Source of the DNA: a virus
IMG/VR virus record: IMGVR_UViG_3300005436_000012
Strand: one strand, 5' to 3'
Length of the DNA: 64,000 bases
The notes under the pieces are model-generated. The model did no database searches, was not told where the DNA came from, and saw only the letters and a list, made by a program, of their open reading frames with translations. Both the position numbers and the translations under genes were made by a program. Every line of letters begins with the position of its first letter. The stretch's first letter is position 1. This document shows, one piece after another, positions 3,559 to 20,439 of the stretch.

Positions 3559-3828
3559 TTGTTCGCTGAGTTACGACCGGATGAATTGGGAAAACTGCAA
3601 AACGGTTGCGGGGAAAAAGTGAGAATGACCGACCACGAAAAAGACCGGCGAAACTTTTGGGAGCATGCGGCGCTCGCGATCGCGCGCGGCGGCCAGGCCT
3701 CGCTCATGATCACGGCGGCATCGGAAGCCCTGAACGCGCGGGATGAATTGTGGCCGGCCGACAAACCGAAGAAGCACGGCAAGCACGCCAAGCACGGCGC
3801 ACGCGGAAAGCACAAGGGGAAGAAATGA
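3559..3828 (+). CDS. hypothetical protein with Lys/His-rich tail
   Basis: C-terminus KKHGKHAKHGARGKHKGKK. Confidence 0.3.
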   Translation: MFAELRPDELGKLQNGCGEKVRMTDHEKDRRNFWEHAALAIARGGQASLMITAASEALNARDELWPADKPKKHGKHAKHGARGKHKGKK

Positions 3829-4625
3829 TTTTCAAAATACTGTACGTGTCCGCATTGCTATTGGCGATGGCCGGATGCGGTTATGTTTCGGCCGACGCGG
3901 GCCACGAAAAAGTGTTGATCGAAAAGCCCATGTTCTTCGGGCACGGCGGCGTGGATCCTGAGCCGGTCCGAACCGGCCGTCAGGTCGTCGCAGCCACGAC
4001 GGACGATGTGGACGTGATCATGCAGCCGCAACAGTTTCAAATCCATGTAACGGATTTAATGACGTCCGATGGTGTTCCGCTCACGTTCGACAGCATCATC
4101 CGCGTGCGCGTGACAGATTCCGTTATGCTCGTCAAAAGCTTTGGACCTGAGTGGTACAAGAACAACATCGAAGCGGAGTTTTTGAATCGTGTCCGGCAGG
4201 CTGTTCGGAAGCACGGCATGAACGAGACCGCCATCAGCACCATCGCGATCGATGCCATCGATCAAGAGATAACCCAGGCGATGCAGCAGCATATCGAGCG
4301 CTCCAAAATACCTTTGGAACTTCTCAAAGTCACCGTTGGTAAAGCAAATCCACCGGACGCCATCAAAAATCAACGCGTCGAGACGGCCACCCAGCAGCAG
4401 CGGATCTTAAGCGAGCAGCAAAGGAAACTGGCCGAGGATCAACGCAAGGCCGCCGAAGCATCGCGCGCCGCGGCGGACAACGCTTACCGCGAGGAAATGC
4501 AATTATCGCCCGATCAATTCCTGCGGCTGGAGCAAATCAAAATGCAGGGCCAGGTCTGCGCGCATGCGCAATGCACGTTCCTGTTTGGTGGCGGGGCGTC
4601 GCCGGTGATTCCGGTTGGACGATAA
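3825..4625 (+). CDS. SPFH/band-7 domain lipoprotein
   Basis: Start MIFKILYVSALLLAMAGCG has a lipobox; SPFH-like core; C-terminal coiled coil QRILSEQQRKLAEDQRKAAEASRAAADNAYREE. Confidence 0.55.
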   Translation: MIFKILYVSALLLAMAGCGYVSADAGHEKVLIEKPMFFGHGGVDPEPVRTGRQVVAATTDDVDVIMQPQQFQIHVTDLMTSDGVPLTFDSIIRVRVTDSVMLVKSFGPEWYKNNIEAEFLNRVRQAVRKHGMNETAISTIAIDAIDQEITQAMQQHIERSKIPLELLKVTVGKANPPDAIKNQRVETATQQQRILSEQQRKLAEDQRKAAEASRAAADNAYREEMQLSPDQFLRLEQIKMQGQVCAHAQCTFLFGGGASPVIPVGR

Positions 4626-4638
4626 ACAAGGAGACGCA

Positions 4639-4866
4639 ATGAAACCGACCATCGGCACAATCGTGATCTACAATCATCCGGGCTCGGCGGACGGAAAATA
4701 TCCGCCCACCCAATCCCCGGCGATCATTCAGAACGTGGCAGCGGACGGCTCGGTGCGCTTGTTCGTGTTCGGTCCCAAGGGCCAACACATGGACGACGGA
4801 TTGACCCAGGGCGATGGTCCGTGCCAGTGGAACTGGCCAGAAATACAGCTCCAGGATTTACTGTAA
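4639..4866 (+). CDS. hypothetical protein
   Basis: 75-aa ORF. Confidence 0.3.
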   Translation: MKPTIGTIVIYNHPGSADGKYPPTQSPAIIQNVAADGSVRLFVFGPKGQHMDDGLTQGDGPCQWNWPEIQLQDLL

Positions 4867-5097
4867 GCGAGTCTGTGCAACGTCCGCGCACGGAAAGGAA
4901 AAAGAATCTCGAACGGGTGGATGAGGCTATGCTGCGCGGGGAGATCCCGCGAGGGCCTTTTTGCTGGTCACGAAACACCTCGCCACCCGTTGGGGACTTT
5001 CGGCAAAAAAGAAGTGAAACCGCACACCCACTCGCGTGCCTCTATTCACATAGCAGGATCGAATCTTGCTGCCCCCGCCGTGGAGAGGGGTTAGCCG

Positions 5098-5562
5098 GTG
5101 GCGAAGGCCGGCTCTAAAGATAGTCAAGTCCCGGTCACCGCTGCTACACCCCAACCTTATTCGTTCGAACCGATCCCCACCGTAGAGCTGCCCGGCGCCT
5201 ATCCGGTGCTCGACATCCTGGGATCCTTTCTCATGTGGGCCGACGAGCACCAGGCCCGTAAGCTGCTGGCCGAGCGCAAGGTGCAAATTCTGAGGCGCAA
5301 GAAGGGCAAGGGCAAGATCATCGGCCTGATGGTGATCCCCGATCCCGACATGCCGGCCGATCAGATCGTCAGCCAAAAGAAATTCTTCGGTCTACCGCAT
5401 AGGCGAGAAACCGAAGACAACCCCGCCAACGTCTGGACCCAGGACAAAATGGGATCCACCCGCAAGTCGATCCCCAACGCCCGGGCGCGCTGGTGCCGGA
5501 AGGTTTGTAAACAGGTCGTGCTCGATTGTCTGACGAAGAACGTCCAGAAGCGGGCCGCATAG
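5098..5562 (+). CDS. hypothetical protein
   Basis: 154-aa ORF. Confidence 0.35.
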   Translation: MAKAGSKDSQVPVTAATPQPYSFEPIPTVELPGAYPVLDILGSFLMWADEHQARKLLAERKVQILRRKKGKGKIIGLMVIPDPDMPADQIVSQKKFFGLPHRRETEDNPANVWTQDKMGSTRKSIPNARARWCRKVCKQVVLDCLTKNVQKRAA

Positions 5563-5574
5563 GAGAAAAGCTAA

Positions 5575-5807
5575 TGCACTACAAAAATGGACGGGAAGCA
5601 AAGAACGGCGACAAAGTTGTGCTGATGTCGACTTATGCCGCGCCCTTCGTTGGAATACTATACGACGCGACGGCAGGAAACGACTATTGCAACGGAAAGA
5701 TCGCACCGATCAAACCGAATGATCCATGCCCGAATCTGAAGGAATGCCTGCATCTTGACGACGTGATCAAGGCCCTTCCAGCGGAAGTTCCCGACAGCTC
5801 GGCTTAA
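5575..5807 (+). CDS. hypothetical protein
   Basis: Internal Met start (MHYKNGREAKNG...) of ORF 5526-5807. Confidence 0.3.
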
Positions 5808-5812
5808 GCCCT

Positions 5813-6004
5813 ATGGCCGCGCCGATCTCGATCGATATCCGCGTCCTGTTCGCCGAAGAGCTGGCCGAGTTGCTGACGGCCTGCGCGCAGCTGATCGCAC
5901 GCAACCCGGAACATCCGGGCGTGCTGGATCTGATCGCGGCCTGCGAACGATTCACCGGTCAAGAGCCATTCGAGGTCCCCGAACTCCGGCGCTCGAGAAA
6001 TTAG
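5813..6004 (+). CDS. hypothetical protein
   Basis: 63-aa ORF. Confidence 0.25.
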   Translation: MAAPISIDIRVLFAEELAELLTACAQLIARNPEHPGVLDLIAACERFTGQEPFEVPELRRSRN

Positions 6005-6558
6005 TGACTGAAACTGAGTTTGCCCGCGAACTCGAAGCCGCATTGCCGATGATGGCGAAAACGGCCCACTTCTTTAAGGCGCCAGGCGACAATACAGAGG
6101 ACATCGTCCAGCAGGCGGCCATGAAGGCGTGGGAGCATCGCGCGCGGTTTCGCGGGGGCTGCCAGATGACCACCTGGTTGTATAAGATCGTCCGGAATGT
6201 AGTCTTCGACAAAAGCCGCAAGGCCAGAACGCGGCCGCATGAAATCCAGTTGCTGATTGCGAACAGCCACAAAACCAAATGGACGACCGGACCTGACCAA
6301 TATATCGACCCGCCCGACGAGCGCATGGTCCCAGCCGATCTGCAGGCGTCAAAAAAGGAACAGCTCGGGAAACTGGACGGATTCATTCAGCGTTTGAGTG
6401 CAGGCGACCAAGCGGCCATACGGCTGATGCTCGCCGGCAAGATGAACCTGGAGCCAACAACCGGCGCCAAGACCCGCTATCACCGCGCGCTGCGCAAACT
6501 GAAGCGCATGAATTTCTCGGCGTTCATCGCCTCGGAGCGCGCACGAACAAAAACCTGA
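6004..6558 (+). CDS. ECF-type sigma-70 family sigma factor
   Basis: Region 2-like DIVQQAAMKAWEH...TWLYKIVRNVVFDKSRK and region 4-like TRYHRALRKLK. Confidence 0.6.
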   Translation: MTETEFARELEAALPMMAKTAHFFKAPGDNTEDIVQQAAMKAWEHRARFRGGCQMTTWLYKIVRNVVFDKSRKARTRPHEIQLLIANSHKTKWTTGPDQYIDPPDERMVPADLQASKKEQLGKLDGFIQRLSAGDQAAIRLMLAGKMNLEPTTGAKTRYHRALRKLKRMNFSAFIASERARTKT

Positions 6559-6596
6559 TCCAACGCTGGCAAGCGTCGAAAGAAAAAGAGACTAAT

Positions 6597-6956
6597 TTGG
6601 CCGCTGCAATCATCCCCATCCTCTCCTCCGCCATACCGCTCCTGCGCCCCTACATTATTTCGCTCGTCACGCATGTAGAGCATCTGTTTGGACCCAAGAC
6701 CGGCCCGACCAAGTTCGACGCCGTATTGAAGGCGCTGCTCGACGCGGCCAGCAAACTATCGACTGCCGGCAAGCTTCCCGGCACGCTCGATCCAGGCTCG
6801 GCCGGATCGATGATTGAATCCATCGTGCAGGAATTGAAAGCTCTGGGAATATTGAATCCCGCCGGAGTCGCTCCCATCGTGCAGGCTGGATCCGTATTGC
6901 CGCCGGCGAGCGGGTCGATGCTGAAGATCGTGGGCGGAACGCTTCAGATCGGATGA
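6597..6956 (+). CDS. hypothetical Ala/Leu/Pro-rich protein
   Basis: 119-aa ORF. Confidence 0.3.
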   Translation: MAAAIIPILSSAIPLLRPYIISLVTHVEHLFGPKTGPTKFDAVLKALLDAASKLSTAGKLPGTLDPGSAGSMIESIVQELKALGILNPAGVAPIVQAGSVLPPASGSMLKIVGGTLQIG

Positions 6957-6986
6957 GCTGTTTCGCTTTGAAAAAGGAAATCTAAA

Positions 6987-7142
6987 ATGCTAGTGCTGAT
7001 CATCATTCTCATCCTGGTCTTCGGATTAGGCGGCGGCTATTACGGCCACACCAATTGGGGCACGCAAGGCGGTCTGGGCATCGGCGTCGGGACGGTGTTG
7101 CTGATCCTGCTGATCTGCTGGCTGCTGGGGCTGTTCCGATAA
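6987..7142 (+). CDS. small hydrophobic membrane protein (51 aa)
   Basis: MLVLIIILILVFGLGGGYYGHTNWGTQGGLGIGVGTVLLILLICWLLGLFR read directly from sequence; below the ORF-track size cutoff. Confidence 0.3.
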   Translation: MLVLIIILILVFGLGGGYYGHTNWGTQGGLGIGVGTVLLILLICWLLGLFR

Positions 7143-7772
7143 ATGGCGCGGCGAAATAAAACGGAAACCGCCGTGGCGCCGGCGACATCGGATCCCCGGC
7201 CTGGCGGAGTACTCGCGCAGGACTACGAGCTGGTCGACGTCTCCCAGTTGCAGGTGCACCCCGACAATCCCCGGCAGGGCGATATCGGCGCGATCGCCAA
7301 ATCGATCGCCATCAATGGATTCTTCGGCGCCGTCGTGGTGCAGAAATCCACCAGCCGGATATTGGCCGGCAACCATCGCTTCGAAGCCGCCAAGGGCGAG
7401 GGATTGAAGCAGATCCCGGTGATCTGGATCGATTGCGACGATGCCGCGGCCCTCAAGATCCTGCTGGCCGACAACAAATTATCCGACGATGCCGTGTACG
7501 ATGAAACGGCCCTCGCCACGCTGCTGATGGACGCCCGCAACCAGGGGAATCTGGAGGGAACGGGCTACACGGAAGTCGACCTGGGCGAATTGTTCAAACG
7601 CATGGGCGACGAGATCCTGAAGGCGGCCGAGCCGGAGGAAAAGAAATCAGGCGAAGGCCGGACGGAGCTCGAGTACCGGGTGATCGTCGAATGCGAATCG
7701 GAAGAACAACAGACGGAACTGCTCGAACGCTTCGAGGCCGAGGGTCTCGAATGCAAGCCACTCATTTCCTAG
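7143..7772 (+). CDS. ParB-like nuclease (ParB N-terminal domain) protein
   Basis: VDVSQLQVHPDNPRQ ... ILAGNHRFEAAK (ParB box-like); acidic C-terminus. Confidence 0.6.
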   Translation: MARRNKTETAVAPATSDPRPGGVLAQDYELVDVSQLQVHPDNPRQGDIGAIAKSIAINGFFGAVVVQKSTSRILAGNHRFEAAKGEGLKQIPVIWIDCDDAAALKILLADNKLSDDAVYDETALATLLMDARNQGNLEGTGYTEVDLGELFKRMGDEILKAAEPEEKKSGEGRTELEYRVIVECESEEQQTELLERFEAEGLECKPLIS

Positions 7773-7773
7773 C

Positions 7774-8937
7774 GTGAAAATCGATATAGCCGTCGAGACG
7801 GAAATCTCGCAATCCACGCGGGCGAAACAGCTGTCGGCCATGTTCGATGTGCCGGCATCCAAGAAATGCTCGCTGCGCTGGTCAGGCGATCTGCCGATCG
7901 AGGATTTCAACTGGAATGTTGGCTTGATCGTGGGGCCATCCGGATCCGGCAAATCGACCATCGCACGGAATCTGTTCGGTGAAAACTTCGATGTGCCGTT
8001 TGAATGGACGGGCAAGAGCGTCATCGATGATTTCTCGGCCCTGCATTCCATGCAGGAGATTTCAGAAGTCTGTCAGGCGGTCGGCTTCAACACCATTCCG
8101 GCGTGGCTTAGGCCCTACAAAATCCTATCGAACGGCGAGCGTTTCCGCGTCGACTTGGCGCGGCGGCTGCTGGAGCTTCCCAATCCGATCGTCGTGGATG
8201 AATTCACGAGCGTGGTCGACCGCCAGGTGGCTCAGATCGGCGCGCACGCGGTCCAGAAATTCGCGCGGCGGCTCGATCGCCAGTTCGTCGCGGTCTCCTG
8301 CCACATGGATATCCTCGATTGGCTGCAGCCAGATTGGATCTTTCAGCCGGCGACGATGCACTTTGCCCGGAGGTCGCTTCAGCGACGCCCAACGCTCGAC
8401 GTCACGATCAGCCGGGTTCCTTACGCCGCTTGGAAACTGTTCGCTCCGTTTCACTATCTGACGGGGAATTTGCATCGCGCAGCGACGTGTTTTTGCCTGT
8501 TCATGGGCAATCGCCCGGCGTCTTTCGGGGCCATGCTGCATCGGCCTCATCCCAGGGTCCGGGACATCATGGGGCTTTCGCGATTGGTCACGCTGCCCGA
8601 TTGGCAAGGGCTGGGGCTAGCCATGATCCTTGCAGACAAACTGGGCGCGGCTTATAAGGCCATCGGGAAACGCATGCACACCTACCCGGCGCATCCAGCA
8701 TTGATTCGCAGCTTCGCAAAATCTGAAAACTGGCATCTGGAAAAAGCCGCCGGCACGTTCGCGCCCTCGACCGGCAACCGTCGACGCCTCGCATTGGGGC
8801 AGAAACTAGTGTCCTCGCGTGGCACTCAAAAGGCCATCGCGGGCGCTGCCGACATGGGCGGGCGTCCTTGTGCGGTGTATGAATACTGCGGCGAGCGAAT
8901 GGAACCGAAACAGGCGGGTCTGATGTTGGGCTTATGA
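7774..8937 (+). CDS. ABC-type ATPase fused to a C-terminal GNAT-like domain
   Basis: Walker A GPSGSGKST, signature-like LSNGERFRVDLARRL, Walker B IVVDEFTSVVD; C-terminal DWQGLGLAMIL resembles a GNAT Q/RxxGxG/A motif. Confidence 0.5.
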   Translation: MKIDIAVETEISQSTRAKQLSAMFDVPASKKCSLRWSGDLPIEDFNWNVGLIVGPSGSGKSTIARNLFGENFDVPFEWTGKSVIDDFSALHSMQEISEVCQAVGFNTIPAWLRPYKILSNGERFRVDLARRLLELPNPIVVDEFTSVVDRQVAQIGAHAVQKFARRLDRQFVAVSCHMDILDWLQPDWIFQPATMHFARRSLQRRPTLDVTISRVPYAAWKLFAPFHYLTGNLHRAATCFCLFMGNRPASFGAMLHRPHPRVRDIMGLSRLVTLPDWQGLGLAMILADKLGAAYKAIGKRMHTYPAHPALIRSFAKSENWHLEKAAGTFAPSTGNRRRLALGQKLVSSRGTQKAIAGAADMGGRPCAVYEYCGERMEPKQAGLMLGL

Positions 8938-8981
8938 TGATCGAATGGACCGAGGTGCTCGAATGGCCCTTCGCGGGCGAT

Positions 8982-9374
8982 TCAAAAGAGGGGTTTCTGG
9001 GGATTGAGCTTCCCGAGCAATTCATCGTCGAGCCAAAACAACCCGAGCCGCCCGCGCATCGGGAAAAACTTTAACGGCTTTGGGTCGCTCAGGATCCAAG
9101 CGTAGGGGCCTTCAAACCAGGGGCTGGGATGTTGGAGCACGATTTCCCGCAGATTCACCTGGCCCACGATGCCGCCGCGCTCGAATTCGGCGGGCAGCGT
9201 GATGCCGCGTCCAAGGCACAGCCGCCGGATGCCGGCGACGTCCTTCGCCAGATGCGTACCGGCGTGAATCAGCAGCGGCCCGCGATGGCGCGTGTACCAA
9301 GTGCGGTTCTCCACCGACTTGTGGCCGTTGACGACCAGCCAGGCGTAGGGCTGTTTGATGCTGAGAATTTTCAA
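8982..9374 (-). CDS. ASCH domain protein
   Basis: MKILSIKQPYAWLVVNGHKSVENR N-terminus; paralogous to the N-terminal domain of the 19356-20090 protein. Confidence 0.55.
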   Translation of the reverse strand: MKILSIKQPYAWLVVNGHKSVENRTWYTRHRGPLLIHAGTHLAKDVAGIRRLCLGRGITLPAEFERGGIVGQVNLREIVLQHPSPWFEGPYAWILSDPKPLKFFPMRGRLGLFWLDDELLGKLNPQKPLF

Positions 9375-10258
9375 CGCGCGGCCTCGATCTGTGACCGCGT
9401 CCAGACCCAGCGGCGGCCGTGACGCACGGGCGCGGGCAGCCGTCCCTGTTTGAGTCTCATGTAGACAGTGGCCTGATGGATTCCCAATAGCATTCCCGCC
9501 TGGGCGGCGTCGACCACGTCACCCACTGACACGGATGCGACTGGAACACGCGCGGGCTTCGGCGGCCGCACAGCGCGTGGCTTTTGGTCAATCGCGCCAG
9601 ACATGGCGGAATTGACGGAATCGCACGGTAAAGGTACAAAAGAGCCGCCTGCCAGCAGTTCCATTTCGAGCGTCATGATGGCGGATCGCACGTTGAATTG
9701 ATTGTCTCGCAGCATGGCTTCGAAATCGGGCTCCGCACGTCCGGGCGCTTCATTGGCCCAGATGTGTTTGAGCAGCTGGGCGGCCGGCGCGAGTAGCGTT
9801 GGATCGTTCGAGAATTTGACCGTGCGGCAGCGGCTCAGAAAACGCGCCTCAAGCAGATTCGTTTCGTTGGCCGTGAAGATGAAAATAGTTCGAGGCGGCG
9901 CCGCGGTGGTGTCGAGCTTGGACAGGAACGCGAGCTGAGCCGCGCGGCTCATTTGGTCCGCTTCGTCCACGATCACGACATGGAAGCCGGAATTCATAGG
10001 GACGAACCAGCACGAGTGGCAGACTTTGTCCACCGTTTCTAGATCGCACGTGCGGGAGGCGATGTGATGCACTTCGCCGTTGATGGCTTGTGCGAAGGCC
10101 AGCGCCATGGTGGTCTTGCCCAGGCCGGAAGGCCCGAGCAGCAGCCAGGCCGAGGGATAGGGATCGCGTGCCAGCGCAGTCAGCAGGGCGCGCGGGCCGG
10201 CGAGTCCGGCGAAAGCGTCCAGCGTCATCGGACGGTATTTCTCGACCAGGGGCGTCAT
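9371..10258 (-). CDS. clamp-loader (RFC/DnaX)-like AAA+ ATPase with C-terminal Xis/MerR-type HTH
   Basis: EKYRP start motif, Walker A LLLGPSGLGKTT, Walker B VVIVDEAD, SRC motif; C-terminal LLGIHQATVYMRLKQGRLP HTH. Confidence 0.55.
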   Translation of the reverse strand: MTPLVEKYRPMTLDAFAGLAGPRALLTALARDPYPSAWLLLGPSGLGKTTMALAFAQAINGEVHHIASRTCDLETVDKVCHSCWFVPMNSGFHVVIVDEADQMSRAAQLAFLSKLDTTAAPPRTIFIFTANETNLLEARFLSRCRTVKFSNDPTLLAPAAQLLKHIWANEAPGRAEPDFEAMLRDNQFNVRSAIMTLEMELLAGGSFVPLPCDSVNSAMSGAIDQKPRAVRPPKPARVPVASVSVGDVVDAAQAGMLLGIHQATVYMRLKQGRLPAPVRHGRRWVWTRSQIEAAR

Positions 10259-10530
10259 AGGCCTCCATTCGTGGGTTTGAACATCCCGGCGAACAGCACC
10301 GGTTGAGCCGGGTGCGCGCGATCATGCCGGCGTTTCAGATAGCGCTGCCGCGCGGGGGAATTTTCGTTCAACGTATACACGAGGCGGAATTCGTCGCATG
10401 GATCGTCCTCGGTGGCCTTGCGGACATTCTTCAGCGGGCCGAAGCGCGAGGCATGCTTGAGTCCGTAGTTCACGCATTGCGGATACTCGGCGAAGACCTC
10501 GCCCCAGGCGAAACTGGCCACGTAGTTCAT
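10255..10530 (-). CDS. hypothetical protein
   Basis: 91-aa ORF, stop/start overlap with neighbours. Confidence 0.35.
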   Translation of the reverse strand: MNYVASFAWGEVFAEYPQCVNYGLKHASRFGPLKNVRKATEDDPCDEFRLVYTLNENSPARQRYLKRRHDRAHPAQPVLFAGMFKPTNGGL

Positions 10531-10715
10531 ACGGTCTTCTCGCCAAGCTCGCGTTTCAGCTCTCTGAGTTTCTCGACGGCGTCATCCCAGGGTCCGTCCT
10601 CGCCGGCAATCTCGTTGGCTTTGTCGGCGCAGCTCGGGCAGAGTCCGTCGTAGCCGTCGCCCAGTTCGTAGCGATCGCCACAGACGCGGCAATCTTCGTG
10701 CAGGTTGTCTTTCAT
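10527..10715 (-). CDS. Cys zinc-ribbon microprotein
   Basis: MKDNLHEDCRVCGD...CPSCADK; start taken from the internal Met of ORF 10527-10775. Confidence 0.35.
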   Translation of the reverse strand: MKDNLHEDCRVCGDRYELGDGYDGLCPSCADKANEIAGEDGPWDDAVEKLRELKRELGEKTV

Positions 10716-11065
10716 ACGCCTCCTTTGCCGCCCTGCGCGCGCTGCATCATGAATCGCTCGCCCTGCGCCCGGCACTTGTCGCAGCAGCGCGGATACGAGC
10801 AGCCGAATATTTTACGTTGGCAATGCTGCGGCCTTTCCTGGTGACAGAAATCGCAGCGAAACGTGCCCTCAGTCGGCTGCAAAAACTGGGCATTGAATTC
10901 CGACAGGCGGCCCGAATTCAGACGGACGTTGACCAGAGCCTGATTTTGATCGGCCGGGTCCGGGCGAACCGAGTCGACCTCGCCATAGAGCGGGATCTGG
11001 GTTTGCAGGTGATAGCGGACCTTGAGGCCCTTGATGAAGCGCGCGCGGGCAGTGCCGTAGTTCAT
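10712..11065 (-). CDS. hypothetical Cys-containing protein
   Basis: Internal Met (MNYGTARARF); CDFCHQ...CQRKIFGCSYPRCCDKCRAQ. Confidence 0.35.
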   Translation of the reverse strand: MNYGTARARFIKGLKVRYHLQTQIPLYGEVDSVRPDPADQNQALVNVRLNSGRLSEFNAQFLQPTEGTFRCDFCHQERPQHCQRKIFGCSYPRCCDKCRAQGERFMMQRAQGGKGGV

Positions 11066-11274
11066 AGCGTGACCTCGCAGCAGATGGGATCGGAAATGCC
11101 GGCGACCTCGGCCATCATTTCGACATGCTCGCGGCTTGATCCGCAATGTTCGCAGTGAACGACCGCGCCGTCGCACAGGCAGCAGTTTTCGCAACGATGG
11201 CATTCCGGGCATTCCTCAATCCCGCAATTGCAGTCGATGACGTCGGCGTGACAGCACCAGCACCAGGGGTTCAT
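11062..11274 (-). CDS. Cys-rich microprotein (about 14 Cys in 70 aa)
   Basis: MNPWCWCCHADVIDCNCGIEECPECHRCENCCLCDGAVVHCEHCG; ATGA overlap with the downstream gene. Confidence 0.4.
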   Translation of the reverse strand: MNPWCWCCHADVIDCNCGIEECPECHRCENCCLCDGAVVHCEHCGSSREHVEMMAEVAGISDPICCEVTL

Positions 11275-11591
11275 AGCGCCCGGTCCATTTCCGCGTGCAG
11301 CGCCGCGCACCAGCGGCATTCGCACACGATCGGTTGCGAGGCGATTTCGAGCAACTCCGCGTCGGTGAAAAAGGGCTGGCCGTCTTTCTCGACACAGATG
11401 GCCGCGATCAAGTTGTGGCAGCGTTCGCAGCGGCACTCGGCCGCGTGCGCTAGATGATTCAGATTCCGGCGTGCTTCCCGGTCGGCTAATGCGTTGGCTT
11501 GGTCCTCGCGCATCTGATCGTAAGCGTAATCGGGATCCGGCTCGCTGCGCGGGGGATCGAAGCCGGGGTCTTGAGCGCCGTAGGTGTTCAT
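11271..11591 (-). CDS. Cys-rich protein
   Basis: AECRCERCHNL...CECRWCAAL. Confidence 0.4.
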   Translation of the reverse strand: MNTYGAQDPGFDPPRSEPDPDYAYDQMREDQANALADREARRNLNHLAHAAECRCERCHNLIAAICVEKDGQPFFTDAELLEIASQPIVCECRWCAALHAEMDRAL

Positions 11592-11794
11592 GCTGCATCT
11601 CCTTTTCGGACCAGCCGTCCATGTTGCGAGGCTGCGTTGCGGATCGCGCCGTCCAGGCTGTTTAGAGCCGAGCGCAGTTTCAGGGCGGATCGAGGGGCAA
11701 TGTCGGGCGTAACGTCATCGCAAATATCGCGCAATCTGTCGCGCGCATGGACGAGCGTCTCCAGCTTTCTGAAGTAGCTCATATCTCGTTTCAT
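11588..11794 (-). CDS. hypothetical protein
   Basis: 68-aa ORF. Confidence 0.3.
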   Translation of the reverse strand: MKRDMSYFRKLETLVHARDRLRDICDDVTPDIAPRSALKLRSALNSLDGAIRNAASQHGRLVRKGDAA

Positions 11795-11985
11795 GCTGCA
11801 TCTCCTTTTGGCTTTTCAGCCGGTTGAATCGCGCGGCCTGGCCGGCGCCGCACGTGCTCCAGATCGGGCTCGATCAGCCCCTCGAAGGGATCGCGCTGGT
11901 CTTCCGATTCCGGAATTTCTTCCTCGATGTCTTCCGACTCGGGCGCTTCGTCCACGTAGCCGGTGAGAAAATATTCAGACTGCAT
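11791..11985 (-). CDS. small acidic protein, apparently leaderless
   Basis: MQSEYFLTGYVDEAPESEDIEEEIPESED; ATG lies 6 nt downstream of the promoter C -10 hexamer. Confidence 0.35.
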   Translation of the reverse strand: MQSEYFLTGYVDEAPESEDIEEEIPESEDQRDPFEGLIEPDLEHVRRRPGRAIQPAEKPKGDAA

Positions 11986-11991
11986 GTGTCG

Positions 11992-12020
11992 AGTATAGAT
12001 CACTGCGCAGTGAGTGACAA
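11992..12020 (-). promoter_or_regulatory. promoter/operator copy C: -35 TTGTCA, 17-nt palindromic spacer, -10 TATACT
   Basis: Reverse complement reads TTGTCA-CTCACTGCGCAGTGATC-TATACT; spacer palindrome TCACTGCGCAGTGA. Confidence 0.45.
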
Positions 12021-12260
12021 CGTCACAGCCTAGCGTGTTTTCCGTATGTTCGGCGCGGTCTGTAGGTGGTCTTACATAGTGTTTACCGCGCATTAGGCTT
12101 GATCTGCCGGATCGGTTAGACAGTCGACACGCGAACACGCGGGCATATGCGCGGACCGCATGGCGCATGGTCAAACGTCACGGCGCACAGGCCAAAAAAA
12201 GCCCAGCAGGCAAGGCGCATTTGCGCGATGCCCACCGGGCGAGTGCCGAAGTTGGAAAAT

Positions 12261-13898
12261 CTATGCGGCCGTCTTCGCGGCTTTGATCTCGGCGCGCTTT
12301 TCCTTGGCGAGTTTTTCCTTGGCGCGTTCCGCCGCCCGATGCTGCGCGGCCTTTTGTTTGGTCCGGAGCTGGGCTGCGACCTCGGCGCGGATGACTTCCG
12401 GTTTCACCTTCCAGCGTTTGGCCGCCTGCATCAAATCGTCCGGATGACCGCCCCCGGAATAATAGTGCAGCCCTTCGCCCAGCGCGGCTTCAAAAATGAG
12501 CCGCATCAGATCGTCAGAAGACGCGGCGCGCATCCAGTCCGAAATGGCGTTCTTGTCGCCCAGGTAGCCCTCTTCCTTGCCGGTGCGTTTCTTCGAAATC
12601 GCTTTGCGGGCGTCGCTGTTTCCCCAGCGCCCGAAAGCCAGCGCCGCGATCAATTGCAGATCGAGCGTTGAGGCTTTCTTCGGATCGAAGGCCGACGCCG
12701 TTTTATCGAGCACGATCTGCCGCGTCTCGCCGTCCACCTTGGAATCGAATTCGCGCTTCTGCTCGGCGGCCAGTTCCTTGGGCGATGAAACGCGCTGGCT
12801 GCTATAGCGGCCCGCGTGCATCGGACAACGCGGATTGGTGCACACGTCGAACTGAGCGCCCACGCGCTCGTCGCCGCGCACCACCAGGGCCGCTTTACCG
12901 AACGCGCATTTGCCTTTCTTTTTGACTTCGGTCCAGCGATTCGATCCGAGCACCGGCTTGCCGTCGAGCGTTCCGCCGGCGTTTTCGTAGGCGGTCGAAA
13001 CGAGGATCGGCTCCTCGCCGCGATTGGCCTCGGCCACCTGCCGGATCTGGATCTTGACGTAGGCCGATTTCTTGGCCTCGAAGCATTTGCGGTCCGTGCA
13101 GACGTCCTTCTTTTTGACGTCCGGAAAAAGCTCGGGCGTGAAGCCGGTCCGCTTCGGACAGACCGTGCAGGCTCCGGCGGCGGGAACCAGTTCGGCGTCA
13201 TCTTTGGCGAACGCCGCCTGCGCCAGGTCGAGCATCAATTCCTGGGTGACCCAGTCGCGCAGTTCGCGGGCGGTCTTGATTTTCTGCCAGTTTTCTTTGC
13301 TGGTGATGCGCTTGAGCGCGGTCTTCTGATCCTCGGGCGTCAGACGGGCGATGATATCCGCCATGGCGATGTTGATCACGCCCTCCCAGAAAGCCTTGCG
13401 GGATTCGGCGATCAATCGCAGCAGCGACAGGCGCTTATAGATGTAGGCCAGATCCTTGCCGGTTTTACTCGAAATGACATTGGCGTCATAGCCGGGCCGC
13501 TTCAATAATTCCTGATAGCCCGAGGCTTCATCGAGCGGATGCACATCGACGTGCTGGAGATTTTCAACCAGCAACACTTCGAGGAATGCGTCGTCCGTCA
13601 TGGGCTGGATAACGGCTGGCACGAATTCGAGCTTGGCGAGTTTGGCGGCGCGCAGACGGCGGTGGCCCGCTGCGATTTCGAAACCGTGAGCGCCCAGTAT
13701 TTCTTGTTCCGTAGGATCGAGCCAGGGCTTCGAGTCCCGGATCGGGCGGCAGAGAATCGGCGCCTTCACGCCGATGAGTTTGATATTCTCGGCCAGTTCG
13801 GCCAGTTTGACGGGGTCGAAATGCTTGCGATTGTTAAGCGGCGACTCGTGCAACTTCGCCACGGGGATCTGGGAGTAGACAACGGTGTGTGTGTTCAT
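12261..13898 (-). CDS. large ParB/Srx-domain protein (545 aa)
   Basis: N-terminal VAKLHESPLNNRKHFDP ... EIAAGHRRLRAAKLA; Cys-containing middle; Lys/Ala-rich tail. Confidence 0.65.
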   Translation of the reverse strand: MNTHTVVYSQIPVAKLHESPLNNRKHFDPVKLAELAENIKLIGVKAPILCRPIRDSKPWLDPTEQEILGAHGFEIAAGHRRLRAAKLAKLEFVPAVIQPMTDDAFLEVLLVENLQHVDVHPLDEASGYQELLKRPGYDANVISSKTGKDLAYIYKRLSLLRLIAESRKAFWEGVINIAMADIIARLTPEDQKTALKRITSKENWQKIKTARELRDWVTQELMLDLAQAAFAKDDAELVPAAGACTVCPKRTGFTPELFPDVKKKDVCTDRKCFEAKKSAYVKIQIRQVAEANRGEEPILVSTAYENAGGTLDGKPVLGSNRWTEVKKKGKCAFGKAALVVRGDERVGAQFDVCTNPRCPMHAGRYSSQRVSSPKELAAEQKREFDSKVDGETRQIVLDKTASAFDPKKASTLDLQLIAALAFGRWGNSDARKAISKKRTGKEEGYLGDKNAISDWMRAASSDDLMRLIFEAALGEGLHYYSGGGHPDDLMQAAKRWKVKPEVIRAEVAAQLRTKQKAAQHRAAERAKEKLAKEKRAEIKAAKTAA

Positions 13899-15028
13899 GA
13901 GAATAGATTTCCTTGGGCTACGCCGCCAAACAGCGGGCTATCGGTGATGGGTTGTTTGCCCGCGTCGAGTGGACGCGCGCTTTTCTGTGCGAATTCGGCG
14001 CTGACGCGCTGGGCGTCGATGCGCGATTGATACTCAGGGTCAGGGACGCCGGCATCCATGCCGTAATTCGGATCCGGGTCAATGCGAACGGCAGGTCGAT
14101 AGGCGATCACGCGGCAGGCGGGCTTCACGAGGCGAATCAGTTTTCCTGGGCAGCCGGTCTTCTCGAAAGATCCAGAAGGCAGATCCTCGACGTCGGCTCC
14201 GATGCCTTCGATCCAGGACCGGAATTCCTCGGCCTTGGCCGTTGATCGGAAGAAGCCGCTCGGCCCCATCATGGCCACCAGCAGGCCGCCCGGCTTTAGA
14301 AGTTTGTAAGCGTGGACCACGTGGTCGATGTCCTGGAAGTTTTCAAAAGGCGGATTCATCAGCACGCGATCATAGAGACCGCTCTCGGGGCTCACGTCCA
14401 GGAAATCGTGCTCGGGTAACAGCGTGTGATGTTTGAGCGTCAGGATCTCCCGCAAGGACGGATTGATTTCGACCACGTCGACCAGCGCGCCAAGATCGCG
14501 GGCCCAGTCGGCGATCGCGCCCGCGCCCGCTGAAGGCTCCAGCACTTTCATTTCGACCCCGACGTCGGCCAGCTCCAGCATTCGCCGGACCGCCGCAGGC
14601 CGCGAAGGAAAGAAGCCGGGGATGTCGCGCAGCTTCACGTCGACCTCCAGGCGATGCAGCCGTTCTTTGGCCGGATCGACCGGGGTGAGCAAGCTGCGGA
14701 TGGCCTTCTGCAATTCGCTCAGTTCGCGCTGCGGCGCGTTGGGATATTCTTCCCGTTCCCGGTCGCAGAACAAAAGGCCGCGGACCGGCACGTCGACGTC
14801 CGACACATAGCGGATCGCCTGGAAGATGTCCGGCAGCGCGCGCGAGTCATGCAGGTCCGCCACCTTGCGCAGAACCTCCTGCATCGTTTGGAGCGTGCGG
14901 CCCTCGCGACGCATATGCTGGTCCTCCTGGGCGCGTTTGCGCGTGTTGGTCAGCCGTTCGCGCAGGCAGTTGTCGATTTTGGGTTGCAGTGCGTCCGCCT
15001 TTTTGCGGAGACTGGTAGATGTGTTCAT
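13895..15028 (-). CDS. N6-adenine DNA methyltransferase (gamma-like motif order)
   Basis: Motif I VLEPSAGAGAIA followed about 40 aa later by motif IV NPPF; start placed at the internal Met (MNTSTS) with an AGGAG RBS. Confidence 0.7.
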   Translation of the reverse strand: MNTSTSLRKKADALQPKIDNCLRERLTNTRKRAQEDQHMRREGRTLQTMQEVLRKVADLHDSRALPDIFQAIRYVSDVDVPVRGLLFCDREREEYPNAPQRELSELQKAIRSLLTPVDPAKERLHRLEVDVKLRDIPGFFPSRPAAVRRMLELADVGVEMKVLEPSAGAGAIADWARDLGALVDVVEINPSLREILTLKHHTLLPEHDFLDVSPESGLYDRVLMNPPFENFQDIDHVVHAYKLLKPGGLLVAMMGPSGFFRSTAKAEEFRSWIEGIGADVEDLPSGSFEKTGCPGKLIRLVKPACRVIAYRPAVRIDPDPNYGMDAGVPDPEYQSRIDAQRVSAEFAQKSARPLDAGKQPITDSPLFGGVAQGNLFS

Positions 15029-15366
15029 GAGGATGCTCCTTTCAGTTCCAACTGCTGTGCGGGTGGGACGGGCGTTAAGGTGTTTAGCCACTCGTATCTG
15101 AGGATCATCGAGTCGCATTGGCCGGTGATTGCCGGCCAATGCACTTCGAAACCGTTGTCTAGCGCGTAGACGCGGGCGTTTCTCAGATGGAGGCGGCTGG
15201 TGCCGGATCGGTATTCTGATCCGGACATGAGCACGCTGTAGGTGGTCGCTTGAATCACCGTGCGGCCTTGATTCTTGACGCCGTCGGTCGAACGCCAAAC
15301 CAGTTTCAATTGGACGCCGGGTTGCAAACGCCGGACGAGCTCGGCGCGGGTCATAGCGGTTTTCAT
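15025..15366 (-). CDS. hypothetical protein
   Basis: 113-aa ORF, coupled overlaps. Confidence 0.4.
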   Translation of the reverse strand: MKTAMTRAELVRRLQPGVQLKLVWRSTDGVKNQGRTVIQATTYSVLMSGSEYRSGTSRLHLRNARVYALDNGFEVHWPAITGQCDSMILRYEWLNTLTPVPPAQQLELKGASS

Positions 15367-15857
15367 GAGACCTCCTTGGCATGTTCCGCGATGCAGCAGT
15401 CATCCGAATCGCACATCAGGCACCAATCGTCGGTTTCTTCGCCGAGCTGCTTGCGCAATTCGAGCGCTGTCCGGGGCGGGTTCATGTCGGCGTCCAGTCG
15501 ATCCGCGCACTCGCGTAGTTCGGTGGCGGTCCAAGCTACGATGCCGGTCACGTAGTCGCGCGCGCGGCCCACCAGCGCGGCCGCTTCGTCGGCATCGTCG
15601 GCCTGCACGAAATCGTAAAGCGATTGATTCTCATCGCTGTAGTAGCTGGTGACGAGAAACTTGTCGCGTTCGGGCGTCACGATTCCCGGTTCGTCCTTGA
15701 CGATGAATTCCCATTCGTCACCGGGCAGCGGCGTCATCACGAACCACTTGGACGCCTTGATGAGATTGGAAGCGAATAGGGCCGCAATAGCGGCCCCGAT
15801 CATGCGCAACATTAGATGGTCCTTGTACGGGCCGGTTGTGATTTTGGCCAGGGTCAT
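15363..15857 (-). CDS. hypothetical protein
   Basis: 164-aa ORF. Confidence 0.4.
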   Translation of the reverse strand: MTLAKITTGPYKDHLMLRMIGAAIAALFASNLIKASKWFVMTPLPGDEWEFIVKDEPGIVTPERDKFLVTSYYSDENQSLYDFVQADDADEAAALVGRARDYVTGIVAWTATELRECADRLDADMNPPRTALELRKQLGEETDDWCLMCDSDDCCIAEHAKEVS

Positions 15858-15858
15858 G

Positions 15859-16626
15859 TCACGCCGCCTTTCTGGCAGCGAGTGACGCCTTGAGCGCGGC
15901 CATGATATCGACCGCCGCGGCTTGCGGCTTCTGGGCTTCGGGTTTGGGCGGCGCTGCGCCGGATTCCTTGGATGCGATCAAGGCCAGAATCTTTTCGCGA
16001 TAGCCATCCGAGAATTTCGAGGCATCGAACGTCCCCGAATAGGCCGCAATCAGACTGGAAGCCAATTCCGATTCCGCCTCGCCGATCTGGCCCAGGTCGG
16101 TGCGGTACTCTTCCGTCGCGCGGGCTTCGTGCGCGTAGAAAAGCGTGTGCGCCACGATGCCCGATTTCCCGGCGCGGATCGCCAGGACGTGTTCGCGGCT
16201 GGACATGGTGATTTTGGCGATCGCCACCGCGCCCGAACGCTTCAGCCCGTCATAAAGCAGGGCGTAAGCCTTCGAGCCGCCCTCGTCGGGCGCGATCCAG
16301 TATGCGCTTTCATAGTTGACCGGATCGACCTGAGCGATCGGAACGAATTCCGTAATCTCGGCCACGTGCGCAGACGACGGTGCCAGGGCCTTGATTTCTT
16401 CCGGCGTCACGATCACCCAGCCTTTGCCGGTCTTGTAGCCCTTCACCACGTCGGCGGGAGCGATATCGGAGCCGTCCGATTTGACGTAGGACTTCCGTCC
16501 CACCGGTTCGAGATCCGATTTCCGGAGTTCATTGAAGCTGACCGATTCACTGCGGGCGGCACATGCTAATTTCACGGGCACGCTCACGAGTCCAAATGCG
16601 ATGTGGCCTTTCCAAACGCTTGCCAT
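15859..16626 (-). CDS. ku: Ku (non-homologous end-joining DNA-end-binding protein)
   Basis: MASVWKGHIAFGLVSVPVKL is the canonical Ku N-terminus; Ku-core-like length (256 aa). Confidence 0.8.
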   Translation of the reverse strand: MASVWKGHIAFGLVSVPVKLACAARSESVSFNELRKSDLEPVGRKSYVKSDGSDIAPADVVKGYKTGKGWVIVTPEEIKALAPSSAHVAEITEFVPIAQVDPVNYESAYWIAPDEGGSKAYALLYDGLKRSGAVAIAKITMSSREHVLAIRAGKSGIVAHTLFYAHEARATEEYRTDLGQIGEAESELASSLIAAYSGTFDASKFSDGYREKILALIASKESGAAPPKPEAQKPQAAAVDIMAALKASLAARKAA

Positions 16627-16705
16627 TTTATTTGCTCTTTTCTCCCTCTGCATTGATTCGGGCTGGGGACCGGCTGGTTTGAAAAACCCAGGCTGCATTA
16701 CGAGC

Positions 16706-16735
16706 GAGTATATCTGACTGCGCAGTCAGTGACAA
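16706..16735 (-). promoter_or_regulatory. promoter/operator copy A upstream of ku: -35 TTGTCA, 17-nt spacer, -10 TATACT
   Basis: Reverse complement TTGTCA-CTGACTGCGCAGTCAGA-TATACT; perfect 16-bp palindrome CTGACTGCGCAGTCAG at 16714-16729. Confidence 0.5.
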
Positions 16736-16897
16736 CACCGCATAGAATACGCGCTGTGCAATGATCGAAAAGCTGGTCTGTAGGTGGTCTTACACTCAAC
16801 CGCCGCGTACCAGCCTCGATTTACCGGGTCGGTTTCGAGACTGACACGCGACGTCTAGGGCAGGTCGGAGGATTGCACAGAACGCGCGGCTATGCGT

Positions 16898-17323
16898 CTA
16901 GGCGGGTGGTTTGGTGTTCGTCTCGCTGAGCACTTGCGCAATGCGCACGTAATCTTCGGTTGACACACCGAGGCGCGGCTCGGTTTTGACGGCGTTGAAA
17001 GTTCGCTCAAACGCCAGCCATCGGCAATCGGCCAGCGCCACGATGAGCGGATCTTCCAGCGCCGTCACGCGCGCGTTCCAGGCATCGATCAGACCGCTGC
17101 CGCACGCGCCCGCGATGTAGGCGGGCTCGACGACATTGTTAACGTAGTCGCGCAGGATCGCGCGTCGCGGTTTGCCGGTGATGATACGCTGCATCATTCC
17201 GGCCAGTCCTCCGAGCTGCGCAGCGAGCGCGATCGAGCGGGCTTTGTCTCGGGCGGGCAGTTGTTCCCATTCCCAATCGAGCGAAATGAGCAGACAAGCA
17301 GCCGGACGTTCTTTCAGTTTCAT
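16898..17323 (-). CDS. hypothetical protein
   Basis: Internal Met (MKLKERP) with an AGGAGA RBS; ATGA overlap with the ligase stop. Confidence 0.4.
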   Translation of the reverse strand: MKLKERPAACLLISLDWEWEQLPARDKARSIALAAQLGGLAGMMQRIITGKPRRAILRDYVNNVVEPAYIAGACGSGLIDAWNARVTALEDPLIVALADCRWLAFERTFNAVKTEPRLGVSTEDYVRIAQVLSETNTKPPA

Positions 17324-18369
17324 TTGGCTTCTCCTTTGAATTTCAGTTGATCGATGGTGCACTCTGACGGTTCGATGTCTTCCCGCACGGCGAGAAAAAC
17401 GGACTGGCTGAGCGACCCGGATCGATGCGCGTAAAGATAACGCACTTCGACCACGGCCCCCACGGGCGGCGCGGTCTTGTTGGGCGGGATCGTGCAACGT
17501 CCCAGCTCGGTGCCGTCAAAAAGCTTCATGTTGAAACTGGATTGCACGTTGTGAGCCGCCACGATGACCGAAGCCGTCGCGACGAATTTGTATTTGAGAG
17601 CCGGTCCGCCTGAATTGGGCCGTCCCGGTGTGTAGGGCGCAATGGCGTATTTCAGCACCACGCCTTCCCTGCCCTCGGATTTGCAGCGGGCGAACAGCGC
17701 GAGTTTGGAATCCGGATCGGTCGCCGTTTCCACCACGCGGATGCCGGATTGCGAGGATCCGAAAAGCGAATGCAGCAGCCCCAGGCGATCGCTGTAACGG
17801 GACGCGCGCATGTCGGCGAGTCCGGCCAGCAGATCGAACGCCCAGATGATGTCGCCGATAATTTCGCCGTCAATGATGAAGGCCTCATACGGGCATTCGA
17901 GAGCGGCTTTGACGATAGTGCCGGGCAGCGTGTTGTTTACCCTGCCCGTCCGCGAATAGCTGGTTAGTCGGCCATCGCGCTTTTCTAAGATGATCCGGTT
18001 GCCGTCGAATTTCTCCTGGAAATAAATATCGGGATCGGGCGCGAGTGAAAGCAATTCCGCGTCCGTGATTTCGTTCAACAGCATGGGCTTCGGAACCAGC
18101 CTCGGACCGCATGGCTCGGGCTTGGCATCGAAGCCGACCGTTTCGAGCGGCGTCGCGTCTTCGCCGGGCGTATAGCCCTTGGCGAGTTTCTCGTTCAGCT
18201 TCGACTGATAAAGCGCGTTCGCGGCCGTCTCCGATGCGGCAGCCACGGTTTTGGTTTGCATCGTTCCTCCGCGCGGCCCCCAGGCGAATTGCACGGTGCC
18301 GTTATCGACGGAGGCGGTATAGACTTTGTCCGACCTCGAATCTTTGTAGTACAGGGTTTGGGTTTTCAT
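17320..18369 (-). CDS. ATP-dependent DNA ligase with N-terminal WGR-like module
   Basis: Motif I KFDGNR, III FIIDGEII, IV WAFDLL, V EGVVLK; N-terminal FAWGPRGG (WGR-like). Confidence 0.8.
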   Translation of the reverse strand: MKTQTLYYKDSRSDKVYTASVDNGTVQFAWGPRGGTMQTKTVAAASETAANALYQSKLNEKLAKGYTPGEDATPLETVGFDAKPEPCGPRLVPKPMLLNEITDAELLSLAPDPDIYFQEKFDGNRIILEKRDGRLTSYSRTGRVNNTLPGTIVKAALECPYEAFIIDGEIIGDIIWAFDLLAGLADMRASRYSDRLGLLHSLFGSSQSGIRVVETATDPDSKLALFARCKSEGREGVVLKYAIAPYTPGRPNSGGPALKYKFVATASVIVAAHNVQSSFNMKLFDGTELGRCTIPPNKTAPPVGAVVEVRYLYAHRSGSLSQSVFLAVREDIEPSECTIDQLKFKGEAK

Positions 18370-18557
18370 TTCGTTGCTCCTTCCGAAACTTCCGCCATGA
18401 AGTCGTCACTGCCGCGATTGAAATTGTTGACGGCAATCGCGACGGCGCACGTCAGGCTATTGAACCGCGAAGAAGCCAGCAATGCTTCCACTTGTTGATC
18501 GGTGACCTTAGCGCCGATTTTGGTTTTGACGGTGAATGTTGCCTCGTAGAGTTTCAT
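18366..18557 (-). CDS. hypothetical protein
   Basis: 63-aa ORF. Confidence 0.3.
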   Translation of the reverse strand: MKLYEATFTVKTKIGAKVTDQQVEALLASSRFNSLTCAVAIAVNNFNRGSDDFMAEVSEGATK

Positions 18558-19156: not shown

Positions 19157-19359
19157 ACAAAACTCCTTCGCAGCCCAAGCAGCAGGCTGCGCACTTCATC
19201 GAGCGCCGTGATCTGGCCGAGCGTCCATTGAGCCATCTCCCGCTCCTGCGGGTTGGTAATTCGCTGCAATTCGTGAGCCAGGGACCCGGCGCGGAGCGCC
19301 AGTAGCTTTCCTTCGACTAGAGCGAGCAATTCTTTTCGAGTGACCGGTTTGCTTTTCAT
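19153..19359 (-). CDS. hypothetical protein
   Basis: 68-aa ORF. Confidence 0.3.
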   Translation of the reverse strand: MKSKPVTRKELLALVEGKLLALRAGSLAHELQRITNPQEREMAQWTLGQITALDEVRSLLLGLRRSFV

Positions 19360-20341: not shown

Positions 20342-20355
20342 GCTGATCTCCTTGA

Positions 20356-20384: not shown

Positions 20385-20439
20385 ACACGGCGCAGAAAAC
20401 GCGCTGTGCAATGATTTGAAAGGCGGGCTTTGCAGCCCG

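Follow-up and report, generated by a model that had tools for sequence, protein, structure and literature searches.

A phage gene pair encoding a ParB-like protein and an ABC-ATPase–GNAT fusion: a candidate module for DNA acylation

TmcA and NAT10 synthesize N4-acetylcytidine (ac4C) in tRNA and rRNA, coupling ATP hydrolysis to the acetyl-coenzyme A (acetyl-CoA)-dependent acetylation of a nucleobase amine. Mom of phage Mu, a member of the GNAT superfamily, places an acyl-type group on N6 of adenine in DNA, leading to restriction evasion. For a family of proteins in which an ABC ATPase is joined to a GNAT domain, the original prediction is said to be that of Iyer, Zhang, Burroughs and Aravind in 2013 (NAR 41:7635). 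The passage on this family in Iyer et al. 2021 (PMC7824862), which cites Iyer 2013, predicts that it acylates a DNA nucleobase. Here, we describe a member found in the IMG/VR virus record IMGVR_UViG_3300005436_000012, a stretch of 64,000 nucleotides (hereafter the window), in which a gene for a short ParB-like protein (7143-7772) is followed by a gene for an ABC-GNAT fusion (7774-8937). The pair belongs to a known, computationally predicted and experimentally uncharacterised family. We see about an even chance that, once phage DNA has been replicated and before it is packaged, the module acylates the exocyclic amine of one of its bases; the acyl group in this phage is probably acetyl.

ParB-like partners of DNA-modifying systems have been described. 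In the 5mYOX176 system (O'Toole et al. 2026, PMC13229309) a thymine dioxygenase requires a short phage ParB, ParB176, specifically on double-stranded DNA (dsDNA). ParB176 consists of a nucleotide-binding and a C-terminal domain joined by a linker, without a DNA-binding domain, and its authors propose that it stabilises the enzyme on DNA (PMC13229309). According to a passage in PMC12839542, DpdB is a ParB-like ATPase that is needed for the insertion of preQ0 into DNA. Searches of the literature, for N4-acetyldeoxycytidine in phages as well as under 'ABC-GNAT' names, returned no relevant experimental work. Beyond the literature that we could confirm, the present analysis contributes a quantified adjacency of ParB to ABC-GNAT, single-chain fusions of the two, ASCH-domain neighbours that carry ac4C-deacetylase residues and are usually convergent, and variants with PanD and a CoA-transferase or with a formyltransferase.

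The gene pair and its family

Both open reading frames (ORFs), which had been picked out in an earlier note on this DNA, are real. The ATG of the ParB gene at 7143 directly follows the TAA (7140-7142) of a small upstream ORF for a 51-residue membrane protein (TAAATG, 7140-7145); the ParB stop codon is at 7770-7772 and the ABC-GNAT gene starts with GTG at 7774, so that the two genes abut. Their features are

7143-7772, plus strand: short ParB/Srx-type protein, 209 residues (Pfam ParB_N, PHROG 723)
7774-8373, plus strand: ABC nucleotide-binding domain, residues 1-200 of the 387-residue fusion
7933-7956, plus strand: Walker A, GPSGSGKS
8125-8139, plus strand: ABC signature, LSNGE
8185-8202, plus strand: Walker B, VVDE
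8302-8304, plus strand: H-loop, H177
8386-8937, plus strand: GNAT acyltransferase domain, residues ~205-387, with a disordered insert at 331-363
8605-8622, plus strand: acyl-CoA motif A, Q278-G-L-G281-L-A283

The fold proposed earlier for the first protein is borne out by Pfam ParB_N (E = 3.5e-8; 33.8 bits against a cutoff of 26.3) and by PHROG 723 and 620, labelled 'ParB-like' (E about 1e-36). The N-terminal domain is of the nucleoside triphosphate (NTP)-binding type and spans residues ~29-115, with the boxes N42-P-R44 and G76-N-H-R79; it is followed by a helical segment, an acidic linker and a conserved C-terminal mini-domain of about 35 residues (~176-209). Across 76 partner ParBs the N-P-R box, the G-(H/N)-x-R box, N111 and D120 are conserved and make up the nucleotide-binding face of the ParB/Srx fold; in the mini-domain the conserved residues are C184, E187 (97%), Q190 (96%) and G201. 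A Pfam scan gave no match to HTH_ParB, unlike in a second ParB of the same genome (12261-13898). The protein is strongly acidic (isoelectric point, pI, 4.56; charge -16; family median pI 4.67), and a ParB that is acidic and lacks a helix-turn-helix (HTH) may bind the enzyme rather than DNA. Further matches are PADLOC MTase_II (E = 3e-14) and, in its N-terminal part, PHROG 498, 'DNA methyltransferase' (E = 9e-27); a few homologues (P0323 and P0336) carry a Dam domain. The protein was rejected as a canonical partition ParB (ParABS), since it lacks an HTH, reaches only 33.7 bits of the 58.45 that TIGR00180 requires and has no ParA beside it. ParA families did not turn up among the conserved neighbours of the module either, and the flanks of the ParB gene encode the 51-residue membrane protein and ABC-GNAT.

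By structure comparison, the ATPase part of the second protein has the fold of an ABC nucleotide-binding domain (NBD), the compact ABC ATPase described in the earlier note, with Walker A, signature and Walker B intact. These three motifs, the D-loop and H177 are invariant or nearly so in alignments of close and of distant homologues. Between Walker A and the signature (residues 61-117), the position of the Q-loop in ABC transporters, no Gln is invariant; diverse homologues nearly all keep D85, and close ones keep D85 and D86 without exception. The earlier note had staked its proposal on the C-terminal region adopting a GNAT fold, and the same comparison found that fold. The Pfam GNAT match of the window protein is sub-threshold (E = 0.04), while other family members exceed the gathering cutoffs. 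The sequence DWQGLGLA is the canonical Q/R-x-x-G-x-G/A motif that binds the pyrophosphate of acyl-CoA, and Q278 and G279 are invariant in 46 sequences with 34-62% identity to the query. The nearest GNAT structures are small-molecule and protein N-acetyltransferases, including RimI and Naa10/Naa50. The GNAT half is very basic (pI 10.4, +16; family median pI 9.4), and the opposite charges of the two partners are kept family-wide (median pI 4.7 versus 9.4). Over residues 5-331 the protein matches PHROG 11143 (E = 2.6e-97), which is labelled 'unknown function'.

The earlier note had called fusions of an ATPase to a GNAT domain rare, which does not hold for this one. A word-index search against 90%-identity clusters gave 7,518 clusters with ABC-GNAT homologues at E <= 1e-5, and an exhaustive search of 50%-identity representatives gave 3,155 matches, 616 of them at E <= 1e-30. 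Homologues with 58-73% identity to the window protein were found. Annotated phage carriers infect Gordonia, Rhodococcus, Arthrobacter, Streptococcus, Lactococcus, Oenococcus, Burkholderia (the Mu-like phiE255), Pseudomonas, Porphyromonas and Leptospira, and there are T4-like Aeromonas and Vibrio jumbo phages. Prophage copies lie in Polyangiales, Planctomycetota, Nonomuraea, Proteobacteria, Acidobacteriota and others, and phages and prophages together cover the phyla Actinomycetota, Bacillota, Proteobacteria, Planctomycetota, Myxococcota and Bacteroidota. In Streptococcus phage 315.4 the homologue (4989-6058) is annotated as an 'ABC transporter' plus a 'hypothetical' protein and is matched by tblastn in two pieces; related Streptococcus, Lactococcus and Oenococcus phages have the same split annotation, and there an ASCH gene follows on the same strand ahead of the large terminase gene. 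The ABC-GNAT gene of these Firmicute phages is split or frameshifted.

The neighbourhoods of homologues were surveyed, as the earlier note had suggested, in 80 IMG/VR loci, 80 GTDB genome loci and four reference phages using neighbour-derived profile hidden Markov models; the genome contigs gave no matches in a single-protein search, while an alignment-based search succeeded. ParB adjacency was counted over those 137 loci from metagenomic viruses and bacterial genomes that leave space for an upstream gene. A ParB homologue lies directly upstream on the same strand in 116 of these, within 4 kb in a further 19 and is missing in two; in the reference phages it is directly upstream in three of four. 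ParB, ABC and GNAT are joined in a single chain in at least ten representative proteins (P0205, P0211, P0184, P0228, P0174, P0197, P0180 and P0151, for example, have 558-623 residues). These fusions keep the motif of the ParB mini-domain (C..E..Q...G) ahead of the ABC domain, and the N-terminus of P0205 matches the window ParB with E = 7e-34. The adjacency and the single-chain fusions are strong evidence that the two products work together: ParB is the obligate partner of ABC-GNAT.

Neighbours of the module

The most informative neighbour of the module, which the earlier note had overlooked, is the gene that faces it in the window,

8982-9374, minus strand: ASCH-domain protein, 130 residues, pI 10.1, convergent with the pair (Pfam ASCH, PHROG 3193)

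Its product scores 31.4 bits against Pfam PF04266 (cutoff 21.2) and E = 7e-44 against PHROG 3193, and its best PDB sequence matches are the ASCH domain of human TRIP4/ASC-1 (E = 3e-11) and Thermus TTHA0113 (E = 3e-5). It carries the motif G-H-K16-S-V-E19-N-R21 ('GxKxxExR'), and G-x-K-x-x-E-N-R-x-W is kept in 33 of 33 ASCH neighbours of ABC-GNAT genes. In a preprint (bioRxiv 10.64898/2026.02.27.708502) the Lys and Glu of GxKxxExR are essential for deacetylation of ac4C in tRNA by TthASCH, TRIP4 and EOLA1, and the need for the Arg is protein-specific within this set. The Escherichia coli ASCH protein YqfB is an N4-acylcytosine amidohydrolase (PMC6972931). Of 148 loci in which neighbours were counted, 23 have an ASCH gene directly after the module, in 21 of them convergent as in the window, and nine more have one within 4 kb (32/148 in total); the closest relatives of the window share the convergent layout. 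The ASCH subfamily occurs in 149 of 50,697 phage records and ABC-GNAT in 84; as both are uncommon, their co-occurrence is far above chance, although the loci are not phylogenetically independent. The window ASCH protein is probably an accessory reader or eraser of an acyl mark.

The phage has two ASCH proteins. The second (19356-20411, minus strand) has 351 residues, with the ASCH domain at residues ~99-230 (PHROG 3193, E = 4e-48) fused to a C-terminal DnaJ (J) domain (Pfam E = 3e-11); GxKxxENR is retained.

Two further kinds of neighbour relate to acyl groups. Aspartate decarboxylase (PanD; Pfam E = 2e-33) and a family III CoA-transferase are encoded directly downstream of ABC-GNAT in three loci, and a formyltransferase (Pfam Formyl_trans_N) is the next gene after it in two phage groups, that of Sisko and phiE255:

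Gordonia phage Jace, 6110-7221; L043, 3478-4516; L048, 1916-2970 (metagenomic): PanD and CoA-transferase III
Gordonia phage Sisko, 1814-2464: formyltransferase
Burkholderia phage phiE255, 6119-6733: formyltransferase

PanD makes beta-alanine, and its presence with a CoA-transferase suggests, from gene content, that a beta-alanyl-CoA type of compound would be the GNAT donor in Jace and the phages of the two other loci. The label 'tRNA-methyltransferase' that the formyltransferase bears in Sisko and related phages is apparently a mis-annotation. These neighbours imply acyl-CoA chemistry and elaboration of an acyl group, and they make sense as suppliers or editors of the acyl-CoA donor or of the transferred group.

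Unbiased clustering of the neighbouring ORFs, with the clusters then scanned against PHROG and Pfam, placed the large terminase subunit (TerL) within 3 kb downstream, on the same strand, in 95 of the 148 loci, and it belongs to three unrelated families (phrog_2, phrog_9 and phrog_38). Distinct families of the small terminase subunit (TerS; clusters 6, 7 and 9) usually lie between the module and TerL, so the idea that the module substitutes for TerS was rejected. The position close to the terminase fits with action on DNA just before packaging.

Acylation of phage DNA and its alternatives

Among the functions that the earlier note had offered, acylation of DNA is the best supported, and it matches the published prediction as worded in the passage of PMC7824862 that cites Iyer 2013. 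In the mechanism that we propose, the ABC domains would dimerise on ATP, like all ABC NBDs, and the strongly basic GNAT halves would bind nucleic acid. By functional analogy with TmcA, ATP binding and hydrolysis would power duplex opening or the flipping of a base into the GNAT active site, where acyl-CoA would donate its acyl group. The small, acidic, HTH-less ParB would be an NTP-regulated clamp or activator on dsDNA, as suggested by analogy with ParB176, and the ASCH protein, encoded in a different transcription unit, would read or remove the mark. The chemistry of the ASCH relatives, hydrolysis of N4-acetylcytosine, points to N4 of cytosine as the target. We infer acetyl-CoA as the donor in the window phage because no donor-synthesis genes are adjacent. 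That DNA would be the substrate, rather than RNA or protein, is favoured by the ParB clade, which is tied to DNA enzymes since it also forms the N-terminus of phage DNA methyltransferases.

Several observations weigh against this proposal. The ParB is acidic and has no recognisable DNA-binding domain, so DNA targeting by ParB is not evident; the nearest GNAT structures are not nucleic-acid enzymes, and the fold thus gives no indication of the substrate. ASCH is present at only about 20% of loci, and ASCH relatives with demonstrated activity act on tRNA or free nucleosides and not on DNA. The module in the window is not beside TerS and TerL (24729-26761). An AlphaFold2 model of the P0205 fusion, made from a ten-sequence alignment, has a pLDDT of 70.8 and a pTM of 0.40, and its domain arrangement is unreliable. 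Our literature search found no experimental study of the ABC-GNAT family, biochemical or genetic.

A target on RNA is unlikely, if the most probable of the alternatives. The module would then be a functional phage counterpart of TmcA/NAT10, an ATP-dependent writer of ac4C or another acyl group on host or phage tRNA or rRNA that serves, for example, to tune translation or to shield tRNA from host anticodon nucleases, with ASCH as the matching eraser of ac4C in tRNA. An ATPase with a GNAT domain is indeed the architecture of the only known ac4C writers, TmcA and NAT10, and a basic GNAT domain is as suited to binding RNA as it is to binding DNA. The window ASCH protein keeps the motif of the GxKxxExR proteins that deacetylate ac4C in tRNA, and the ABC matches include the ribosome-associated proteins EttA, ABCE1 and ExpZ. 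The obligate partner, however, comes from a ParB-fold clade that is otherwise fused to DNA methyltransferases, and wherever a ParB has been characterised as the partner of a modification enzyme, the pair acts on DNA; the scans revealed no domain specific to TmcA, and a place close to the terminase is typical of DNA-directed functions.

Somewhat harder to credit is a protein target: the GNAT domain would acetylate a host or phage protein (RNA polymerase or a defence, nucleoid or packaging protein), with the ABC domain as the switch, and ParB would serve as sensor or adaptor. At a net charge of +16, the GNAT half would be unusual among protein acetyltransferases, although the protein N-terminal acetyltransferases RimI and Naa10/Naa50 are among the nearest GNAT structures. 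Phage GNATs such as Rac are described in a passage of PMC7824862 as acetylating host RNA polymerase, the logic of a ParB sensor, an ABC ATPase and an effector has been proposed for Menshen (PMC12065111), and the pair shares a tightly packed same-strand block with a sigma-70-like gene (6004-6558). A protein target nevertheless leaves two things unexplained, namely the recurrent ASCH, PanD and CoA-transferase, and formyltransferase neighbours and the kinship of ParB with the N-domains of DNA methyltransferases.

It is very doubtful that the module is a packaging accessory, in which ParB and the ABC ATPase would recognise or process the concatemer for the terminase (recognition or nicking at pac or cos) and the GNAT domain would have a secondary or regulatory part. 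Nicking of DNA by ParB-fold domains is on record in the literature as summarised in part of PMC5512222, and what stands of this suggestion of the earlier note is the frequent position immediately upstream of TerS and TerL (in 95/148 loci, before three unrelated terminase families); it is weakened by the separate TerS gene that usually precedes TerL, by the window and its closest relatives, where module and terminase lie far apart and the facing gene is ASCH, and by the absence of the module from most phages with the same terminase types. Few features of the family are as well conserved as GNAT motif A, which makes the acyltransferase central and not secondary. A defence system, also suggested earlier, was rejected: PADLOC gave no system match and only weak generic P-loop matches (mad3, E = 6e-10, in the signature region), and the context is that of phages and prophages, beside packaging genes.

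For the proposal of DNA acylation, the ParB adjacency, ASCH and the acyl-enzyme variants sharpen the published prediction to a testable one: N4-acyl-deoxycytidine with possible erasure by ASCH. A bolder form, which we regard as improbable, is a reversible mark: ParB and ABC-GNAT would write N4-acyl-deoxycytidine before packaging and the ASCH amidohydrolase would read or erase it after injection. The acyl group would be acetyl here and a beta-alanyl or formylated aminoacyl group in the relatives with PanD and CoA-transferase or with formyltransferase; the writer would be expressed from the rightward block, and ASCH from the opposite strand among replication and repair genes. If this held, it would be the first enzymatically defined pair of writer and eraser for acylated cytosine in any DNA.

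If phage DNA is the substrate, a widespread module would represent a new class of phage DNA modification, the ATP-dependent acylation of bases, with consequences for the evasion of restriction and CRISPR, for sequencing artefacts and for biotechnology. ParB-fold cofactors of DNA-modifying enzymes would gain a second example, and a role at the DNA level would be suggested for the ASCH 'ac4C eraser' domains. The window instance in itself adds little beyond one more family member. The hypothesis is directly testable because there are culturable carriers: the Gordonia phages Jace and Sisko, Burkholderia phiE255, Streptococcus 315.4 and Lactococcus P335.

Gene arrangement in the window and comparison with known systems

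The window holds all, or a large share, of a tailed-phage genome. A protein identical to its ABC-GNAT is encoded on a 72-kb metagenomic contig. The main blocks and the terminase genes are

3750-8937, plus strand: short block with an SPFH protein, a sigma-70-like factor and the ParB and ABC-GNAT pair
8982-24018, minus strand: long block with a clamp-loader-like AAA+ protein, the second ParB with an HTH, a methyltransferase-like protein, Ku, an ATP-dependent ligase, ASCH-DnaJ, an HNH protein and an ATPase
24729-25322: TerS
25319-26761: TerL

The pair thus converges on leftward genes, as the earlier note had it, and the ASCH gene is the first minus-strand gene that it meets. A scan of 5500-9600 for promoters and terminators gave nothing above the shuffled expectation. 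In the plus-strand block, a phage-encoded SPFH/Band-7 membrane protein (3750-4625; Pfam E = 4e-16) and a protein with sigma-70 region 2 (6004-6558; Pfam E = 2e-10, PHROG 1740), three genes upstream of ParB, were observed; on the same strand, 49917-51131 matches the C-terminal part of the ATP-dependent protease PHROG phrog_4871 (E = 2e-80).

In the minus-strand block, the gene at 9371-10258 combines a clamp-loader-like AAA+ domain (DNA_pol3_delta2/AAA) with a C-terminal excisionase-type HTH_17, which is unusual. The second, larger ParB (12261-13898; 545 residues, ParB_N and HTH_ParB) overlaps the start of the gene at 13895-15403, whose 502-residue product has a Methyltransf_23-like domain and matches segments of giant phage proteins and DNA methyltransferase PHROGs; these two genes are another pairing of ParB with a modification enzyme in the same genome. 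A Ku-like protein (15859-16698; PHROG 4873, E = 2e-42) and, close by, an ATP-dependent DNA ligase-like protein (17320-18369) form a phage non-homologous end-joining pair of a kind known from some actinophages.

The closest known relatives are the PHROG 11143 proteins, the family of Iyer 2013: the window pair shares the protein family, the ABC and GNAT architecture and the phage context, and nothing essential differs, except that in the window the terminase genes lie elsewhere and the module converges on an ASCH gene. The likeness to TmcA drawn in the earlier note stands as far as an NTPase is fused to a GNAT domain; it fails in the class of ATPase, which is of the RecD/helicase P-loop type in TmcA/NAT10 and ABC here, and TmcA has DUF1726 and tRNA-binding domains and no ParB partner. 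Homology to TmcA was rejected, as Pfam and NCBIfam scans (E <= 0.1) gave only ABC/AAA P-loop families and Acetyltransf_1. Mom, likened here by description, is a small stand-alone protein with neither ATPase nor ParB, whereas the window protein is an ABC fusion with a ParB partner; a homologue of the window protein is found in the Mu-like phage phiE255.

Menshen (NsnABC) also brings together a ParB-fold protein, an ABC ATPase and an effector domain. Its NsnA is ParB-DUF262 with ParBDB, its NsnB is an AAA_15/OLD ABC protein with DUF3696 and its NsnC is a nuclease on a third protein, all in host defence; in contrast, the window ParB matches PF02195 and not DUF262, and the next gene is the ASCH gene on the opposite strand. 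With no PADLOC match to Menshen at E <= 0.1, this assignment was rejected. A GNAT toxin-antitoxin system (AtaT/TacT) was rejected as well: here the GNAT domain is no small stand-alone toxin but part of an ABC fusion, and a ParB-fold protein is encoded upstream instead of a ribbon-helix-helix (RHH)/DUF1778 antitoxin, the sole likeness being an acidic upstream and a basic downstream protein.

The window ASCH protein shares the ASCH signature and GxKxxExR with the amidohydrolases YqfB, TthASCH, TRIP4 and EOLA1, whose substrates are free N4-acylcytidines and tRNA; the phage protein may be a reader only. For the part that we propose for ParB, the closest experimentally studied analogue would be ParB176. 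Like the window ParB, it is short, lacks a DNA-binding domain and has a small C-terminal domain, and it stands beside a post-replicative base-modifying enzyme, as the window ParB is predicted to do; its partner is an iron/2-oxoglutarate (Fe/2OG) dioxygenase without an ATPase where that of the window ParB is ABC-GNAT, and the two ParBs are likened by their architecture.

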